Origin: a virus
DNA: 39,092 nucleotides
IMG/VR virus record: IMGVR_UViG_3300045988_134801
Strand: one strand, 5' to 3'
Both the position numbers and the translations under genes were made by a program. This document shows positions 11,374 through 39,092 of the stretch, in pieces. Under the pieces are notes generated by a model. It did not search any database. It saw only the letters and a list, made by a program, of their open reading frames with translations, and had not been told where the DNA came from. Positions within the stretch are counted from its first letter, which is position 1, and each line of letters begins with the position of its first letter.

Positions 11374-11457
11374 AAGGAACCAACAATCAGCATTTCCGTT
11401 TTCACCAAAATGAGGTTCCACGCACAGTGTAGCGCGGATCCTTGGAAAGAGACGACC

Positions 11458-12738
11458 ATGGCCAGAGCGTTCGTAGACGACAGATGGCTCAAAAACGACG
11501 AGGACGGCAACCCGCCCAGCAGGGCCGCGAAACAGTCGCTGGCCAATGCGAAGGATCCGATGAAAGCCAATGTGCCCGACAAATGGCGGTCCGCGCTGTA
11601 CGGCCAAGGTTCACGGTGGAGATGCCGCTGGTACACGCTCCGAGACGGCAAACGCGTCCAGAAATCACGGAACTTCGCCAAGCTCCGTGACGCGGAGGAA
11701 TACGCAGCGGCCATCGAGGACGACATCAGACGCGGCAAATACCGCGACCCGCAGCAGGAACTACGCATCTTCCGGGACGTTGCCTCCGAATGGACGGACG
11801 GCAAGATGGATATCAAACAGGGCACTTTGGGCAGATACCGCCGCGAATTGCGCGTTTATATCAACCCCAAGTGGGGCGATCGCACACTGAGGGAAATCCA
11901 ACGCGACGAACTGCAACAGTGGGTCACGCAGCTCACCGAAGGCGGGTATCCCGCCGAACTGCAGGACGATCGCGAATCGAAGCCATTGAGTCCACGCAGC
12001 ATCCGCAACATCGTCAAGGTCGTCATGGGCGGTGTCATGGAATTCGCTTTGGAGCACGGCTGGATTGGCGAGAACCCCATTGAAAAGGTCACCGTGCCGC
12101 GCATCACGCAATCCGATGACGACATGGTGTTCCTTACCGTCGAGGAGGTGGAGTTGCTGGCCGGCATGGCCGAACGGGCAGGACGGCCGGTAGACGGGCT
12201 GATCGTCCGCTGGCAGGCATACACCGGTGCCCGCATTGGCGAGACGCTGGCACTCAAATGCGGCGACGTGGATGTGGATTCACGCAGGGCGCGCATCCGC
12301 CGCACTTGGACCGACGACGGCAAAGGCAGGCTTGTGCTGGGCACGCCGAAGAACGGCAAACCGCGCAGCATCGCCATACCCAGATTCCTCATACCGTCCA
12401 TCGAACGGCAGATGGAGGGCATGGGCGACGACGACTGGCTGTTCCGCGCGGCAAGAGGCGGGAACCTGTGGACGAACACGTGGCGGACGCGTGTCTGGCG
12501 AAAGGCCGTCCGACTGGCCGGCATGGAGGACGAGGGCGTGACCATCCATAGTTTGAGGCATAGCTATGCGAGCTTTGCAATTGCTCAAGGCGCGGACGTG
12601 AAGACCCTACAGATGCAGCTCGGCCACTCCTCACCCAGCATCACGCTGAACACATACACGGCTCTTTGGCCGGAACGATTGGACGATGTGGCGGACGCGA
12701 TTGGCGAGCTGCGCGCTGAACAGTTGAAGACCGTCTAG
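11458..12738 (+). CDS. int: Tyrosine integrase (phage integrase family)
   Basis: 426 aa. Catalytic signature present: TGARIGE (Arg), HSLRHSYAS (HxxR) and LGHSSPSITLNTY (His/Tyr). It lies adjacent to attP. Confidence 0.9.
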   Translation: MARAFVDDRWLKNDEDGNPPSRAAKQSLANAKDPMKANVPDKWRSALYGQGSRWRCRWYTLRDGKRVQKSRNFAKLRDAEEYAAAIEDDIRRGKYRDPQQELRIFRDVASEWTDGKMDIKQGTLGRYRRELRVYINPKWGDRTLREIQRDELQQWVTQLTEGGYPAELQDDRESKPLSPRSIRNIVKVVMGGVMEFALEHGWIGENPIEKVTVPRITQSDDDMVFLTVEEVELLAGMAERAGRPVDGLIVRWQAYTGARIGETLALKCGDVDVDSRRARIRRTWTDDGKGRLVLGTPKNGKPRSIAIPRFLIPSIERQMEGMGDDDWLFRAARGGNLWTNTWRTRVWRKAVRLAGMEDEGVTIHSLRHSYASFAIAQGADVKTLQMQLGHSSPSITLNTYTALWPERLDDVADAIGELRAEQLKTV

Positions 12739-15100: not shown

Positions 15101-15154
15101 AAAATCCCACACGTGGCTACCGTTGGAAGCCGCGATAACCACGTGTGGGATTTT
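15101..15154. repeat. Perfect 16-bp inverted repeat AAAATCCCACACGTGG / CCACGTGTGGGATTTT (22-nt loop) between the lysis cassette and the recombinase gene
   Basis: Read directly. T-runs follow the stem on both strands, so it looks like a bidirectional terminator. It ends 10 nt before the recombinase ATG, and its 3' end touches that gene's GGAGGT SD (15155-15160). Confidence 0.8.
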
Positions 15155-15164
15155 GGAGGTTGAA

Positions 15165-16037
15165 ATGTTGTTGGGAACGTTTGTGAATGAGGTCTGGTGG
15201 CCCTCCTGCGGGAAGCTCCGCGAGTGCACGAGGGTGGGCTACGAGTCGGCCTACCGCTGCCACATCCAGCCGAAATGGGCTGGCGTCGACATGGAGTCGA
15301 TCACCGCGAACGACATCGAGGAGTGGCTCGGCTCGTTCAATCAGGCCGGCGCCGCACGCAAGGCGTGGGGCGTGCTGCGGGCGATACTCCGACTCGCCTA
15401 TCGCAAGGGAGTCACCGACAATGACGTGACACGTCGTGAAATCAGGCTGCCGCACCTGCGGCGGTATGAGCCGCGCGTGCTCGACGCCAGACAGGTAAGA
15501 CGGCTGCTCAAAGGCTTCTACGGTCACGCGTTGGAAGCCTGGTTATTGGTCTCCGTCTGCGCGGGACTGCGCCGATGCGAGTCCGTCGGCATTGAATGGG
15601 CCGACTTGGATTTACGCCGGGGAACCGTGACCGTCAAAAGATCAGTGCAATGGGTCGCTGGACATGAAACGGTCACCGACCCGAAGACCGACCAGAGCCG
15701 ACGGACGGTCGCACTACCACGGTTCGCAGTCAAACGGCTCGCGCAATTGCGCCACGGCAGAACCGGCAGGCTGGTCGGCGATCTGAACGCCAACCAGGTG
15801 GCAGCTCATTACACGTCATGGTGCCAACGCATGAAACTCCCCTGCGTGCCGCCAAGGAACCTCAGGCACACCTTCGGCACTCTGGCAATCGCTGCGGGAG
15901 CCGATATCTCAGTGGTCGCACGACAACTCGGTCACAGCGACATCAAGACAACCGCCCGCTACTATCTCCGCCCCGATTTGTCCGTGCTGAGAAGTCTGCA
16001 GCGGGCATGGGAGCGGCTCATTATCGGGGTCGCATAG
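15165..16037 (+). CDS. Small tyrosine recombinase; predicted shufflon invertase (Rci/Rin-like role)
   Basis: 290 aa. Motifs present: AGLRRCE (Arg), LRHTFGT (HxxR), LGHSDIKTTARYY (His/Tyr). GGAGGT SD. It is the only + strand gene inside the late region, and its stop codon lies inside repeat copy A. Confidence 0.85.
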   Translation: MLLGTFVNEVWWPSCGKLRECTRVGYESAYRCHIQPKWAGVDMESITANDIEEWLGSFNQAGAARKAWGVLRAILRLAYRKGVTDNDVTRREIRLPHLRRYEPRVLDARQVRRLLKGFYGHALEAWLLVSVCAGLRRCESVGIEWADLDLRRGTVTVKRSVQWVAGHETVTDPKTDQSRRTVALPRFAVKRLAQLRHGRTGRLVGDLNANQVAAHYTSWCQRMKLPCVPPRNLRHTFGTLAIAAGADISVVARQLGHSDIKTTARYYLRPDLSVLRSLQRAWERLIIGVA

Positions 16038-16050
16038 CTTTCCGTAACCC
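16035..16050 (+). repeat. Recombination-site candidate A: TAGCTTTCCGTAACCC (core TTCCGTAACCC at 16040-16050)
   Basis: 16/16 identical to copy B. The 11-bp core is identical, in inverted orientation, to copy C. Confidence 0.85.
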
Positions 16051-16298
16051 TTACTTTTGGCAACAGCAACGTTAGTGGCGGACCGTACCCAATCGGTAGG
16101 GTATCTAACCCAAATGCGATCAAGTCCTTGAATGGCAGAGCCACACTGTCGTCCGGAACGACAGTGGCGATTCCATTCATCCACCCGTCATACCTGCAAC
16201 GTTCGGTCCAAGTATCGATTGCACCTGATGGGACAGTCAATCTGCTCGTCGGTCCTGAAGTTGTTGTCACAGGTGGAATCGTGGAAATCCATTTTTAG
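16041..16298 (+). other. Silent RBP C-terminal cassette 1 (85 codons plus stop; no start codon or SD)
   Basis: The open frame begins at the core codons TCC GTA ACC (SVT). It reads SVTLTFGNSNVSGGPYPIGRVSNPNAIKSL...VTGGIVEIHF and its stop codon lies 1 nt before copy B. Confidence 0.75.
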
Positions 16299-16314
16299 TA
16301 GCTTTCCGTAACCC
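16299..16314 (+). repeat. Recombination-site candidate B: TAGCTTTCCGTAACCC (core at 16304-16314)
   Basis: Direct repeat of copy A. Confidence 0.85.
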
Positions 16315-16643
16315 CGATTCATTTCACGAAACTGACCTCCGACCCGGAATTCACAATCAGTGGATGCGTCGTCAATGGTTTGGCGACCGTCTACTGCCGG
16401 TGGGTCAACAAAGGGACTTTCGGCAATAAGGCGTGGACTGGAGTGGCTTTGGCACGCATGGACGTGCGGTCCGGCGGCGAAAGCTTCAACATGTTCGTAG
16501 ACAATTCCCCTGAAGACCGGATGCAGAATCGTTTTCTGTACGTCGTGGGAAACACGGTTTCCTTCCGCACATCGTATGATGCGACCATTCCAGCAAACAC
16601 ATGGCATGCCGGCAGCGTATCGTTTCCGGTGACGACGGTTTAG
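16305..16643 (+). other. Silent RBP C-terminal cassette 2 (112 codons plus stop; no start codon or SD)
   Basis: The frame starts at the core SVT codons. It reads SVTPIHFTKLTSDPEFTISGCVVNGLATVYCRWVNKG...AGSVSFPVTTV. Its stop codon TAG (16641-16643) overlaps the stop codon of the expressed RBP gene (TTAG). Confidence 0.75.
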
Positions 16644-17452
16644 GCCGTGATGTACGAGGCGGATGTGACGAAACCTTCTCCGTTCTGGCTGCCACCAAGA
16701 TTCCTGTAGGTGAATTTGCCGTCCGGCAGTATGGTGAAATCTCGTTGGTTGCTACCGTCACGCCCACTGTACGCCCACCTCGTCGTAATCAATGGACGCC
16801 AGCCAGCCGGCAGGACGCCGAAATTGCCGGTATCCCATGATGCCGTGGCGGCGCTCTTCCATTCCACGAGGATTTGCACCACATTCCCGGCTTTCACGCC
16901 CGTCACCTTGCCATACTGGCAGGTGATAAGCGTCTGGGTTACGGAATCCCACAGCTGGCTCATCGGAGGCAACTGCTTGACAAGCATGACAGGAGTTCCA
17001 GCGGTGATGCCACTGATCGGGATACGGGCGATCGGAATCCATACGGTGCCGGAATTGTTCAGGATACTACCCGACGGTACCGTGGGGTCAGCCGCCGTGC
17101 CACTGGTGGCGGTGCCCTTCAGCACCGCGAGCGCGATCGTTTCGATGTTGTTCGAGTCTCGCGTGTATTTCACGCAGATTAGGTCGTTGCGGTTCCGTCC
17201 TGTGACTCCGCTTTCGATGGTGACGGTTTCCGCCGCGGTGACGCGTGCGTATCGTCCTTCGATCACAAGGTTGAGGACCGGGATGAGCGCTTTGTTTGCT
17301 GACTGCATGGTCACGGCGGGGAATTTGCCGTCGCCGCCTTGCAGCAGGTAGTTGCCGTTTCCGACCAGTCCGGCCTGCATGGCTCCTTGGTCGCTGGATG
17401 TGATGTGCGGAGCGCCGGCCTTGCCGGTGATGAGATTCATGGTCATGGTCAT
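16640..17452 (-). CDS. Tail fibre / receptor-binding protein with an exchangeable C-terminus (residues 170-270 are the currently expressed cassette 3)
   Basis: 270 aa, ATGA-coupled to the upstream gene. The inverted core (16936-16946) lies in frame as S170-V-T. It is the last gene of the tail module. Confidence 0.85.
   Translation of the reverse strand: MTMTMNLITGKAGAPHITSSDQGAMQAGLVGNGNYLLQGGDGKFPAVTMQSANKALIPVLNLVIEGRYARVTAAETVTIESGVTGRNRNDLICVKYTRDSNNIETIALAVLKGTATSGTAADPTVPSGSILNNSGTVWIPIARIPISGITAGTPVMLVKQLPPMSQLWDSVTQTLITCQYGKVTGVKAGNVVQILVEWKSAATASWDTGNFGVLPAGWRPLITTRWAYSGRDGSNQRDFTILPDGKFTYRNLGGSQNGEGFVTSASYITA
16936..16946 (-). repeat. Recombination-site candidate C: core TTCCGTAACCC in inverted orientation, inside the RBP gene
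   Basis: The + strand reads GGGTTACGGAA. The flanks differ from those of A and B. Confidence 0.8.
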
Positions 17453-17708: not shown

Positions 17709-18260
17709 TCAGGCTGTGCGCTGGTAGATGTGTCCCGGAAGCGTCGTGCCGCATTCCTTCCAAGTGCCGCCGTAGGTGGTTCCCGGATTTGTTGTGGCGG
17801 TGGTCCAGTAGAGGGAGCCGACCGGGTGGGCGGCGATGAACGCCTGGCTTGCGCTCATGCCCGTCTCGCCCTTGTCGCCCTTCGGGCCGACGAGGCTTGT
17901 GTTCGAGACTGGCTTGAACGTCACGTTTTTCCCGGTGGCTGTGATCTGTGCGTACATCAGGTTCTTGCCGCCATTGGTCATGGCGAAGAAGTATTCGCCT
18001 ACGACCGGGGCACGGTTGAAACTGAGTGTCTGCCAGTCAAAATCCGAGCATGCGGACGTCCAGTATCCGGATAGTATGCGTGTGATGATCAAGGCAGGCA
18101 ACCCGGTCTCGCCGCGTTGGCCGGCCTCTCCTTTCGCTCCGGTGGCCCCGGTCGCGCCAGTGGCGCCGGCAGGGCCTTGCGGTCCTTGCACTCCCTGCTT
18201 GCCTTGCGGTCCGGTATCGCCCTTGGGGCCTTTGACGTTGCCAAGTAGAATCTTCGTCAT
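17709..18260 (-). CDS. Collagen-like repeat tail fibre protein
   Basis: 183 aa. GXY tracts ([43 protein letters not shown]). The N-terminus is paralogous to that of 18270-19109. AAGGAG SD. Confidence 0.85.
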   Translation of the reverse strand: MTKILLGNVKGPKGDTGPQGKQGVQGPQGPAGATGATGATGAKGEAGQRGETGLPALIITRILSGYWTSACSDFDWQTLSFNRAPVVGEYFFAMTNGGKNLMYAQITATGKNVTFKPVSNTSLVGPKGDKGETGMSASQAFIAAHPVGSLYWTTATTNPGTTYGGTWKECGTTLPGHIYQRTA

Positions 18261-18269
18261 GCGTGCTCC

Positions 18270-19109
18270 TTATTTTCCGTCGTTGATCGTGTAGTACAGG
18301 TCGCCAGTCGCCTGATCGTAGGAGACGGGAGCTTCTGACACGGTGGCCGTGTCCGCGTACACGGCGTACAGGTCTCCGTTCGGGTCGACCTGCAGTGTGA
18401 AGAATCCGGAAGTTGGCGCCGTCACGCCGCTGGCACCCTGCGGTCCTGTCGGTCCCTGTGGGCCCTGCAGTCCCTGCGCACCTTGTATTCCCTGCTTGCC
18501 TTGCGGCCCGGTGGGGCCTGTTGCTCCGGTAGGTCCGGCAGGGCCGGTGTCGCCTTTCGGACCTTGCGGGCCGGTAGGGCCTCCTTCTCCGGCGGGTCCG
18601 ACATCGCCTTTATCACCCTTGTCACCTTTCAGCCCTTCAGGACCTTGCGGGCCGGTAGGGCCGGCAGCTCCAGTGGCTCCTTTAGGCCCGGTCTCGCCGG
18701 TATCGCCCTTCACGCCTTGTGGGCCGACGTCACCTTTTGGACCTTGCGGTCCGGCAGGGCCTTGCGTTCCGATGATGGATTGACGGGAAATCGTCTTTCC
18801 TGTGAATAGGCTGCCGGACTGTGAAACGCACTGCCAGACGATGCTGTATTTTCCGCCACCTGACAATGCGGTCGAATATTCGTTGGCGAGTGGTGTTCGG
18901 TTCAACCATTCGCTCACGTTCCCCGTGAAAGTGGATCCCACCGGATATTCGCCGACGAGGGATTTCTTCATCACGAGCGCCGGAAGGCCGACGTCGCCTT
19001 TAGCTCCCTGAACGCCCTGCGCTCCTTGCTTGCCTTGCGGGCCGGTGGCCCCGGTATCGCCCTTGTCACCTTTGGGGCCTTTGATGTTGCCGATCAATAG
19101 TCGCGCCAT
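18270..19109 (-). CDS. Collagen-like repeat tail fibre protein
   Basis: 279 aa with two GXY blocks. The C-terminal domain ([24 protein letters not shown]) is paralogous to the C-terminus of 19113-20852. Confidence 0.85.
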
Positions 19110-19112
19110 GTG

Positions 19113-20852
19113 TCACCTTTCCGGGATGTCCACGTACAGGTTCCCGCTCTCGGAGTCCCAGACGAACGAGGGTGGGTTCGTGTTGTCCGGATAGTTCACG
19201 TACAGGTCGCCGTCGCCTTCCATGCTGAGCGTGAAGAAGCCGTTCGAGGGGGCGGATACGCCGCTGTCGCCCTTGTCACCCTTCTCCCCTTGCGGGCCCT
19301 GGATGCCTTGGGAACCTTGGATGCCTTGTCTGCCCTGGGGGCCGGTCGCTCCCTGTGGACCCGTGGGACCCTGCGGACCTGTGGAACCCGTCGGGCCTTG
19401 CGGTCCCGCCGCGCCGATCGCGCCGGCATCACCCTTATCGCCTTTCTCGCCGCGTATCCCCTGCAGTCCCTGCGGGCCTTCGGGACCGGCGACGCCTTGC
19501 GGCCCTCGCTCCCCGATCGCTCCTTTCTCTCCCCGAGGACCGGTGGGTCCGGTCGCTCCGGTGGCCCCCTGTGGTCCTGCGTCGCCCTTGTCGCCCTTCT
19601 CCCCTTGCGGACCCTGGTCGCCTTTCGGAAGCCCCAAATTCAAGGTTTTGTCGCTGCCGGCGCCCGTAAGCGACGCGCTTGCCTGTGCACCGGGGGCGAG
19701 CGTGTCCACCGAACCGATTTTCAGGCCGGTGATGTAGTCGCCTTTCGGCTGTTTACCCGACAATGCGTTGTTGAGCGAGTCGATGTCGTTTCTGGTCACG
19801 TCGGCGCTGAACGTCCAGGCGTCGAGTTTGAGGCCGGCTCCAGCGTAGTAGGCGTGGCCACCATCCCCGATGGAGGATTCTCCGCTGTTGCCGCCGGCGC
19901 TGGCACCTCCGGATTCGTAGGTGACGGTGAGCACGCCTCCCGAAACCTTGACGATCTTCTTGGAGATCTCGGCAGTGACGACGAGGCCCGTGTTGTTGTC
20001 ACGACCCGTGACCAGGTCGCCAACGTCCGCGTCGATGCCGTCGGGAATGTCCACGTCGATGGTGCTGGCGTTCCGAAGCTCCTGGAATTTCTGCCTGCCC
20101 TTGTCCTCGAGCTCGTCGGCTTCGGCGTTGGACAACTCGTATGTGGCGGTGCGTTCGTCAAGGCCTTTGAGGGTCTGCGTGTGGCTGAACGTGCCGTTCG
20201 CGTCGGCGTACCAGTGGATGACGGTACGGTCCTTGAGTTCGCCCTTGCCCAGGCAGATGAGATGGTTGATCGGGTGCGCCGCCTGTTTGGCGGTGAAGTC
20301 GATGAGGTCCGAGTCGATGCTGTCGCCGATCGTGCGGACGGGCATGGCGCTCATGGATACCTTGTCGCCGTCATTACGCAACCGGAGTTTGAGTCCGCTT
20401 GCCCTGAGCATCTTGACCAGACCGCTGTACAGGTCCACGTACCGGTCGAACTGGCAGGTGGTCTTGTGGTCGGCGCTTTCGTCGGTGACGGTGAACAGGC
20501 CTTGCAATCCCGCACGGCTGACGAGCGTGCGCATAATGACGGGAATCGTGCCGGACAGGGTGAGGTAATCGTTGTTCCTGTCCGGTTCGATGATCTTCGA
20601 GGCGAGCACTCCATGCCAGTCGCGGCCATGCCATGTGACGGTGGACAGGCCTCCGTCCACGTCGACATCCGTGTCGTCGATGATGCCGCCGTACTCGGTG
20701 CCGTCGATCATGATGCGGCTCCCCGCCTTGAGCGCGGCGTCTTCGACCTGCAGGTCGAAGTCGTTCTCCCCGCTACCGAACGCGAGGTCGAGCGTGTATG
20801 AGGCGTGGCTCGCCACGGGTTTGCCTGTGGCGTCGGTGACGATCAGGTCCAT
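19113..20852 (-). CDS. Tail-associated (Tal-like) minor structural protein with a collagen-like C-terminal region
   Basis: 579 aa starting at [12 protein letters not shown], with an AGGAAAGGAG SD. It sits directly after the Dit-like gene. A long GXY tract (about 120 aa) is followed by [24 protein letters not shown]. Confidence 0.8.
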
Positions 20853-21670
20853 GGCGGTTCGCTCCTTTCCTCGCAGACCGTCAAGTCGAATTGGAATCCT
20901 CCCGGCCAGCTGATCGGCTGTGTTCCGGGCGCGAGCGGTTGGAACACGTACCGGCCGGAATCCTTGCCCGACCCTCGCACGGCCTGCGCGAAGCAGTTTG
21001 TGACGAGACCTGTGCCGCTGACCATGGTGACGGTCCTGACATCGCCGGTGCCGTCGATTTCCAGACGCGAGCCGGATGGCACGGTCACGTCGACCTCGTA
21101 CCGGTTGTTTCCGATGATGACGTACGGTTGCGCGCATGGTCCGAATATCGTGAGCTTGACCGGCTGCGGGATGGACGTGTCGTTGACGATCTCGGCACCC
21201 AATGCCATGCCGGCGAAATCATGCGGATAATCATATGGATAGTCAAGGTCGGCGGTTCCGGAATCGTATCGCGGCGTGAAATGCGTCATGGTCGGACGGC
21301 GCCACACGCCATCGGCCAGCACGATGGTCAACTGCGTCTCGACCATCGTGGGCGTGATGGATTGCGGTTCGCTTTTCGTGATCCACGCTTTGGCTTCCCA
21401 TTCGCCGTCGGCCACGAGCGTGCCCGGGTTCCCGGATGCCATGTCGGCGTCCGCGAGGCGGCGCAGTAGGTCGAGCGTGGCCGGAGAATCGTGGATCTTC
21501 ACGGTGACTGTCGCCTCGCGTGCCTTGCGGGTGATGCCCGTCATGCCACGTGAGGCGAGGCTGTAGTCCCAGACGCGGGCTCGCAGTCCCGTGAGCGTCT
21601 CGCCGTACAGCGGCCCCTCGAAGCCGATGCGCTCACCTGTGGCGGCGCACACGTATTCAAGCGATTGCAC
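20843..21670 (-). CDS. Distal tail protein (Dit-like)
   Basis: 275 aa. It lies immediately after the tape measure gene. GTG start with an AGGAAGGTGAG SD. The assignment rests mainly on size and position. Confidence 0.7.
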
Positions 21671-38973: not shown

Positions 38974-39092
38974 CTTTTTTTGCTGTGCCGTTCCATGCCC
39001 ATAACACACAACACAAAAACAACAAAAATAAATACATATATAAAAAACAATGGAACATTGGTTGTTTGTTTATATATGGTTGGAATTCCGGC
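38974..39092. repeat. Terminal direct repeat (copy 2), identical to 1-119
   Basis: Direct comparison of the window ends. Confidence 0.95.

Follow-up and report, generated by a model that had tools for sequence, protein, structure and literature searches.

IMG/VR virus record IMGVR_UViG_3300045988_134801 is a DNA stretch of 39,092 nucleotides (hereafter the window, whose positions serve as coordinates throughout) in which a tyrosine recombinase gene, two silent open frames on the same strand and a convergent gene for a receptor-binding protein (RBP) of 270 amino acids (aa; 16640-17452, - strand) lie side by side. The first-pass annotation of this DNA had proposed that these parts form a shufflon switching the C-terminus of the RBP, and had pointed to Rin-type shufflons in bifidobacterial prophages. 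Such shufflons are indeed published: the Rin shufflon was first described in 2018 in prophages of Bifidobacterium breve and B. longum (Mavrich et al. 2018, PMC6109161). We use the same terms here, namely rin for the recombinase gene, rix for the recombination sites, Rc for the constant N-terminal part of the RBP and Rv for the variable head cassettes. In cassette notation the window reads >F >G [B<], with heads F and G silent and head B in the expressed slot (Table 1).

The locus is organized around a short repeat. The core TTCCGTAACCC occurs exactly three times in the 39-kb window, twice on the + strand and once, inverted, inside the RBP gene (chance expectation 0.43; three or more matches in 0 of 100 shuffles), and no further copy was found elsewhere in the window when one mismatch was allowed. 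The two direct copies widen to the 16-nt repeat TAGCTTTCCGTAACCC (repeat family D10). Read as T-TCC-GTA-ACC, each core leads into an open frame, of 85, 112 and 101 aa respectively, that begins with Ser-Val-Thr (SVT), and the 101-aa frame (16945-16640) corresponds to residues 170-270 of the expressed protein. The core positions, orientations and shared SVT frame given in the first-pass annotation were correct at every coordinate checked, as was its observation that two stop codons abut: those of cassettes B and G converge and overlap as TTAG at 16640-16643. The suspected lower GC content of the cassettes was likewise seen, at 50-55% compared to ~59-68% in rin and the tail genes. The two silent frames had also been described as lacking start codons. 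Open frames do lead directly from the cores, but short internal start codons are present within the silent cassettes.

We then considered the enzyme. Profile searches of Rin returned PF00589 (4e-15) and an N-terminal SAM-like domain only, and the solved structures closest to it are those of XerD and XerC-like proteins. Alignment to XerD assigned the catalytic residues R136, K174, R231 in place of His-II, R234, H257 and Y266. The earlier reading of Rin as a tyrosine recombinase with R, HxxR and Y motifs is therefore upheld as to the family, R136 and Y266, but the middle motif is R231-x-x-R234 and not HxxR. A canonical integrase of 442 aa is encoded separately at 11410-12738 (+), just past the lysis genes, and contains Arm-DNA-bind_4, SAM-like and catalytic domains. 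Rin is thus not the integration enzyme, and the profile and relative searches that the annotation had called for place it among Xer-like recombinases and apart from the integrase. The Bifidobacterium thermophilum phage PMBT6 likewise encodes a separate canonical integrase. A 393-aa open reading frame (ORF) at 77-1258 had been a candidate for the window's integrase and was rejected, as it matched no family.

Structure models were produced for the expressed RBP and for silent head G. In the AlphaFold2 (AF2) model of the expressed RBP, the head was confident (predicted local distance difference test (pLDDT) score 80-94 for residues 171-270), and the N-terminal part was poor. Foldseek comparison of this model against the PDB placed the RBP of phage p2 first (E 4.5e-5), followed by the RBP heads of TP901-1, bIL170 and Listeria PSA (root-mean-square deviation 3.3-3.9 Å over ~104 residues). 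The point at which these fold matches begin suggests that the swap point, residue 170, lies approximately at the boundary between neck and head. Head G was modelled as a compact all-beta domain (pLDDT 93.6) whose best match by TM-score was the RBP head of TP901-1 (TMq 0.53-0.60). Structure prediction, which the first-pass annotation had proposed for what it took to be beta-rich C-termini, thus gave an expressed head resembling lactococcal RBP heads and an all-beta head G, the resemblance being weaker for the latter. Profile-profile comparison detected no similarity among heads B, F and G (probability <=0.5%), as one would expect of alternative specificities, and different heads are predicted to confer different host specificities. 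Separate PHROG families matched the N-terminus and the head of the RBP. No Pfam match was obtained for the RBP or the cassettes, and a sequence search of PDB chains with the RBP gave only chance matches to designed beta-propeller proteins (E > 0.3).

Table 1 Features of the shufflon locus, with positions in the 39,092-nt window. RBS, ribosome-binding site.
Feature	Position	Strand	Description
Palindrome/hairpin	15101-15154		Between the divergent lysis-side gene and rin; 22-nt arms
rin	15165-16037	+	XerD-like tyrosine recombinase of 290 aa without arm-binding domain; presumed shufflon invertase
rix1, silent-type site	16035-16050	+	Left flank TAGCT plus core 16040-16050; TAG doubles as the rin stop codon
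Rv F, silent head cassette	16041-16298	+	85 aa, without a start codon of its own
rix2, silent-type site	16299-16314	+	Core 16304-16314
Rv G, silent head cassette	16305-16643	+	112 aa
Rv B, expressed head cassette	16640-16945	-	RBP residues 170-270; convergent with cassette G
rix3, Rc-type site	16936-16953	-	Left arm TGTGGGA (16947-16953) plus core 16936-16946; in frame as ...LWD-SVT...
Rc, constant RBP N-terminus	16946-17452	-	169 residues; no other shufflon part has a start codon and RBS of its own

The neighbours of the locus are genes for collagen-like tail fibres, a minor tail protein, the tape measure and lysis. Three consecutive tail-fibre-like genes with collagen-like G-X-Y repeats lie at 17709-18260, 18270-19109 and 19113-21137 (all - strand), and the DNA repeats within them (families D1 and D2) could be prone to recombination in their own right. 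Nucleotides 1-119 of the window are an exact repeat of 38974-39092. An end overlap of 119 nt is a typical assembler k-mer length, and the record thus represents a complete phage genome of ~38,973 bp that was assembled as a circle.

Inversion isomers and cassette exchange among related phages

Relatives of the locus were collected by scanning viral contigs with Rin. The scan returned a B. angulatum metagenome-assembled genome and 80 viral contigs with Rin 88-100% identical, the latter out of 219 stretches encoding a relative, and 80 loci were kept. From these, 365 core-like sites were extracted, and the cassettes were translated and clustered into families. The exact core TTCCGTAACCC accounted for 320 of the 365 sites and is the form found in this Rin clade. 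A search of related phages for the core at the same position in the RBP, as the first-pass annotation had suggested, found between 2 and 9 sites per locus in more than 80 close relatives; seven copies, five on the + strand and two on the - strand, are present in OY725605, the closest database phage (97% identical), and three in PMBT6. At least 10 recurrent head families make up the pool that the loci share. Families A-I were each found in both orientations and in the expressed slot somewhere, and family J was not seen in the expressed slot.

Evidence of inversion came from near-identical phages (97.8-99.3% identity), which differ by exact inversions bounded by the cores. At 99.3% identity, loci L066 (>I >G [B<]) and L073 (>I >B [G<]) align colinearly and gap-free over 3373 bp, but only after the 643-bp G/B segment between the cores has been inverted in silico. 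Loci L103 and L102 stand in the same relation, and their inverted segment of 720 bp is 100% identical. The window itself has the cassettes of L072 (>I >F >G [B<]) except for one, the breakpoint falling within the direct repeat. Recombination between direct sites would produce just such a deletion (or insertion), and the first-pass annotation had predicted the loss of a cassette by an event of this kind. The pair L136/L067, considered as outer-site isomers on the basis of architecture, is merely 82-89% identical and was set aside as weak evidence.

Both in-frame chimeras that the first-pass annotation had derived from the window occur elsewhere as intact, full-length genes. Head G occupies the expressed slot in L073, L074 and L102, and the predicted Rc-G gene is intact in L102 (96% nucleotide identity) and L073 (92%); head F occupies it in L101 and L105, where the predicted Rc-F gene is intact (92.7% nucleotide identity). 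Protein databases contain Rc (97-99% identical) fused at one and the same residue to heads A, B, C, D, E, G and I, with the fusion to head G represented by database protein P0175. The silent frames of the window are open and undisrupted and are 88-99% like copies that are expressed elsewhere.

Contig ends gave an indirect hint of heterogeneity within samples. Of 83 related contigs, 25 end inside the shufflon, and seven of them (L003, L004, L005, L085, L112, L127 and L139) end 0-3 nt past a rix core. This suggests branching of the assembly graph caused by mixed isomers within samples, although some ends may represent provirus trimming. Assemblies of these phages break at the shufflon, and host-range prediction from one assembled RBP allele sees one of several states. 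Cassettes of the same family stand in tandem in L090, L109 and L132 (A< A<) and in L117 (E< E<), which implies that the pool grows also by duplication or acquisition and not by shuffling alone. One isolate genome carries two prophages with the same rix core, L091 (IMGVR_UViG_2765235700_000001) and L137 (IMGVR_UViG_2765235700_000002), and cross-talk between co-resident shufflons seems possible. The cassettes of L091 are truncated and decayed.

In public annotations (OY725605.1, MH444512.1; proteins P0241-P0331; phrog_36485), Rin is labelled 'integrase', and silent heads are annotated as independent hypothetical proteins with PHROG families of their own. Silent copies of head G appear in databases mostly as stand-alone hypothetical proteins of 87-134 aa; silent cassettes are often called as stand-alone small ORFs because of their short internal start codons. 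The GenBank record of PMBT6 does not mark its three-site shufflon as a shufflon.

Crossover site, proposed mechanism and alternatives

We next examined how the sites are arranged and where within them exchange takes place. Across the relatives, + sites were all proximal to rin and - sites all proximal to Rc, with one exception that contains a mismatch and is probably spurious. The central convergent pair was kept as a unit, being D/E in 36 loci and B/G in 13. Such a topology is preserved if inversions between inverted sites and deletions are the only events that occur. The 8-nt left flank of a site was strongly linked to the element upstream of it (mutual information 2.40 of 3.85 bits; permutation maximum 0.54) and barely linked to the cassette downstream (0.75; permutation maximum 0.70). 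A core variant altered at position 8, TTCCGTAGCCC, was found with cassette D in 33 of 33 cases (e.g. L111 8747, L125 6908), two of them in the expressed slot, as well as at one truncated site where the opening residues correspond to D, and with no other family. The linkage of the left flank, together with the fact that TTCCGTAGCCC stays with D, places the exchange within core positions 1-7, and these population data suggest that strand exchange is confined to TTCCGTA. A collection of natural isomers thus offers a read-free route to mapping a crossover to 7 bp.

Site logos revealed a left flank of aTAG(c/t)(t/a) at silent sites and of TGTGGGA at the Rc site, and to the right of the exchange interval ACCC alone was conserved. 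Two loci showed site variants of another kind. A variant altered at position 2, TCCCGTAACCC, was present at two sites of L106 only (3484 and 4791), one the Rc site and the other a silent site, and this pair might reflect heteroduplex in the overlap region. In L138, a T at position 8 occurs at two sites (7197 and 7855), which a simple crossover model does not account for.

Taken together, we propose, with a probability of roughly 90%, that the locus represents a Rin-type shufflon, in which site-specific multiple inversion exchanges the receptor-binding head of a siphophage RBP, and switching would be expected to be ongoing in this phage. In this model, Rc provides the only start codon and RBS and ends at an in-frame rix, and each promoterless head cassette opens with rix, head B being fused at present and heads F and G lying silent on the opposite strand. 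Rin would bring the Rc-linked site into synapsis with a silent site of opposite orientation and exchange strands within the first 7 bp of the core, and the intervening DNA would invert, joining Rc residues 1-169 to another head that brings its own stop codon. Recombination between direct sites would instead delete cassettes. The window could in this way give rise to four DNA isomers, >F >G [B<], >F >B [G<], >B G< [F<] and >G B< [F<], that would encode three proteins, of 270 aa (head B), 281 aa (head G) and 254 aa (head F). The three-state switch put forward in the first-pass annotation holds for the number of proteins, but four DNA isomers are predicted to encode them. The predicted junctions are Rc(...CTGTGGGA)-TTCCGTAACCC-CGATTCATTT for Rc-G and Rc(...CTGTGGGA)-TTCCGTAACCC-TTACTTTTGG for Rc-F.

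Several points weigh against this proposal. The evidence for inversion comes from the comparison of relatives' assemblies, and the window is the consensus of one isomer; its own isomers >F >B [G<] or >B G< [F<] were absent from the 80 kept loci. Head G gave no fold match at E<=0.001, its matches being statistically weak (E 0.05-0.26). The catalytic pentad of Rin departs from the expected His at the His-II position; Arg is found there in 81 of 87 Rin homologues, and the change is probably a family trait that is tolerated. Lastly, we infer only, as was also the case in PMC6109161, that Rin is the catalyst of the inversions.

Alternatively, the shufflon could be a fossil, an inherited architecture in a phage that no longer switches, whether through inactive sites, an inactive Rin or silenced expression, leaving a fixed RBP gene and two dead cassettes. 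A single isomer in the window, a small locus of 3 sites compared to up to 9 in relatives, which is consistent with erosion by deletion, the existence of decayed loci such as L091 with its truncated cassettes, and the strong hairpin directly upstream of rin all fit that view. We nevertheless consider a fossil quite improbable, because the window encodes a full-length Rin that does not differ from the one in L066-L069 (100% identity), because L073 (Rin 99% identical) is an inversion isomer of L066, and because the window retains three perfect cores and open silent frames.

A different origin for the cassette arrangements, general (homologous) recombination or modular exchange between co-infecting phages in place of site-specific inversion, would draw on the many related phages that co-occur in gut metagenomes, even in one genome, and on cassettes that are mosaic and lower in GC than their flanks. 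Breakpoints at a repeat of 11-16 nt, too short for efficient RecA-type exchange, the sharp decay of linkage within 7 bp, and isomers that are exact, conservative and gapless inversions make this highly unlikely. The strict order of + sites before - sites is moreover a prediction of inversion between inverted sites, and in the loci with tabulated layout an invertase-like gene directly precedes the first site. It is also hardly credible that Rin serves integration or Xer-like dimer resolution while an invertase encoded by the host flips the cassettes in trans. The best NCBIfam matches of Rin are indeed Xer-type models, all far below their cutoffs, and PMC6109161 describes a second bifidophage inversion locus without an adjacent recombinase. 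Integration, however, is provided for by the canonical arm-binding integrase elsewhere in the genome, as in PMBT6, rin stands directly upstream of the first rix wherever the layout was tabulated, and the Rin clade tracks core position 5, which is G where Rin is at least 79% identical and C where Rin is ~55% identical.

A palindrome upstream of rin

A palindrome whose arms are 91% complementary and fold at -43 kcal/mol fills the 83 bp that separate rin from the divergent lysis-side gene (start 15081, - strand). The 9-mer TGTGGGATT has only three copies in the window, one in each palindrome arm and one at the left flank of the Rc rix (16945-16953), against a chance expectation of 0.33 (three or more copies in 0 of 100 shuffles). 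Of the fetched loci that cover these positions, in either Rin subfamily, most show the same pattern of two inverted copies of TGTGGG(A/T)TT 40-41 nt apart upstream of rin and one at the Rc site. Every lineage examined had a hairpin upstream of rin, including PMBT6 and a Collinsella contig (Rin 53% identity), in both of which one motif arm is degenerate. The loop and surroundings of the hairpin have diverged among lineages, and the consensus stem of 14 pairs has an invariant centre and compensatory changes at the stem-edge pairs. A consensus scan for promoters and terminators called no rin promoter and did not call the hairpin, whose 10-nt loop exceeds the limit of the scanner. The palindrome could be a bidirectional terminator or attenuator, and/or a putative Rin-binding operator or accessory site, and is absent from the published description of the Rin shufflon.

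These elements can be combined into a single, doubtful proposal, in which rix is larger than the published 11 bp, the palindrome binds Rin, and the G/C difference in the core isolates the Rin subfamilies from each other. Under this proposal, a 7-bp crossover region TTCC(G/C)TA would adjoin a 'strong' left arm, TGTGGGA, at the Rc-linked site only, and the two inverted copies of that arm in the palindrome (TGTGGGATT) would serve rin autoregulation and/or act as an accessory site. Such an accessory site could bias recombination toward the Rc site and toward inversion over deletion, and G versus C would render the two bifidobacterial Rin subfamilies mutually non-recombining, even in one cell. If true, the accessory-site bias would address the puzzle of directionality raised in the 2018 paper (PMC6109161). 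The isomer collection also yields testable hypotheses on site architecture and on the regulation of rin.

Comparison with known shufflons and invertible tail-fibre switches

The mechanism is already published, and the locus is a further, well-supported example in a sister subfamily. Its main value lies in confirmation and scale. Human-gut Bifidobacterium phages carry this Rin subfamily in abundance, and 3536 sequences belong to the closest Rin protein cluster. A literature search for the exact core TTCCGTAACCC returned no shufflon paper, and papers naming PMBT6 mention no shufflon.

The published Rin shufflon (prophages Bb423phi1, Bl157phi1 and Bl30698phi1, integrated at dnaJ2) consists of an armless XerD-like tyrosine invertase, rin, an Rc of 168 aa and promoterless Rv cassettes of 95-100 aa, and its rix is the 11-bp asymmetric sequence TTCCCTAACCC, located upstream of each Rv and inside the full-length gene; inversions at rix were observed in prophage and virion reads (PMC6109161). 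The layout agrees with that of the window, where rin and the Rv array are followed by Rc on the opposite strand. Here too, an armless tyrosine recombinase distinct from the integrase adjoins the array, an 11-bp asymmetric repeat precedes every Rv and lies in frame in the RBP gene, and a constant part of ~168-169 aa (169 aa in the window) is combined with mutually dissimilar heads of ~85-118 aa (85, 101 and 112 aa in the window). Both systems further share RBP folds of the lactococcal type, although the N-terminal model is of low confidence here, and inversions exactly at rix, which here were found among near-identical relatives.

For a direct comparison, loci of the published type were taken as viral contigs with two copies of TTCCCTAACCC (n=64), recognized by core and layout and not by the accessions of Bb423phi1 and its relatives. 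A Rin relative was encoded in 52 of the 64, near full length in 47 and about 55-60% identical, the top matches reaching 56-58% over 287-289 residues, and an Rc ~40% identical was present in the same layout in 40 of the 64. The recombinase of the window is thus homologous to Rin at loci with the published rix, with 55-58% identity over 287-289 aa. The cores differ: TTCCCTAACCC there and TTCCGTAACCC here match at 10 of 11 positions, with C there and G here at position 5, and the G form is found throughout this Rin clade. The difference (TTCCCTA in the published system) falls inside the proposed 7-bp crossover region. We read it as a subfamily difference and not as grounds for exclusion, and on sequence grounds place the window in a sister subfamily of the published Rin shufflon. 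The phage backbone also differs, being PMBT6-like here, with matches named for B. adolescentis, B. catenulatum, B. pseudocatenulatum, B. angulatum and B. thermophilum, and with 3 heads the copy in the window is small.

A Rin shufflon with rix TTCCGTAT is also known from Eggerthella lenta prophages (PMC8778435), which we compared by their description. In these clade 1 prophages a tyrosine recombinase likewise adjoins tandem Rv genes and a larger Rc gene. Its rix has the 7-mer TTCCGTA in common with TTCCGTAACCC and continues with T, whereas ACCC follows here. The host belongs to a different class, Coriobacteriia, and the Rv cassettes are reported to have H-type lectin domains.

The serine invertases Gin (Mu), Cin (P1) and Min (p15B) swap the C-termini of phage tail fibres and so change host range, Min with multiple segments. 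They share with the present locus a phage-encoded invertase and the same biological logic. Rin, in contrast to the enzymes of the Gin/Cin/Min/Pin switches, is of the tyrosine type (PF00589), with Y266 as the conserved nucleophile.

The R64/TP114 shufflon (Rci, sfx, pilV) resembles the present locus in its tyrosine recombinase, in its clustered inversions and in the swapping of an adhesin C-terminus behind a constant N-terminus. The sfx sites of the R64 type are asymmetric with a 7-bp crossover core (PMC9045228), which parallels the 7-bp interval suggested here. In contrast, Rci targets the adhesin of a type IV pilus, encoded by a conjugative plasmid, and not a phage RBP, the sfx sites have a conserved right arm of 12 bp where merely 4 bp (ACCC) lie to the right of the interval here, and R64 segments are each flanked by inverted sites, whereas here + sites precede - sites around a single convergent pair. 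The locus thus works like the R64 shufflon without being a member of that type, from which it is set apart by its target and its sites.

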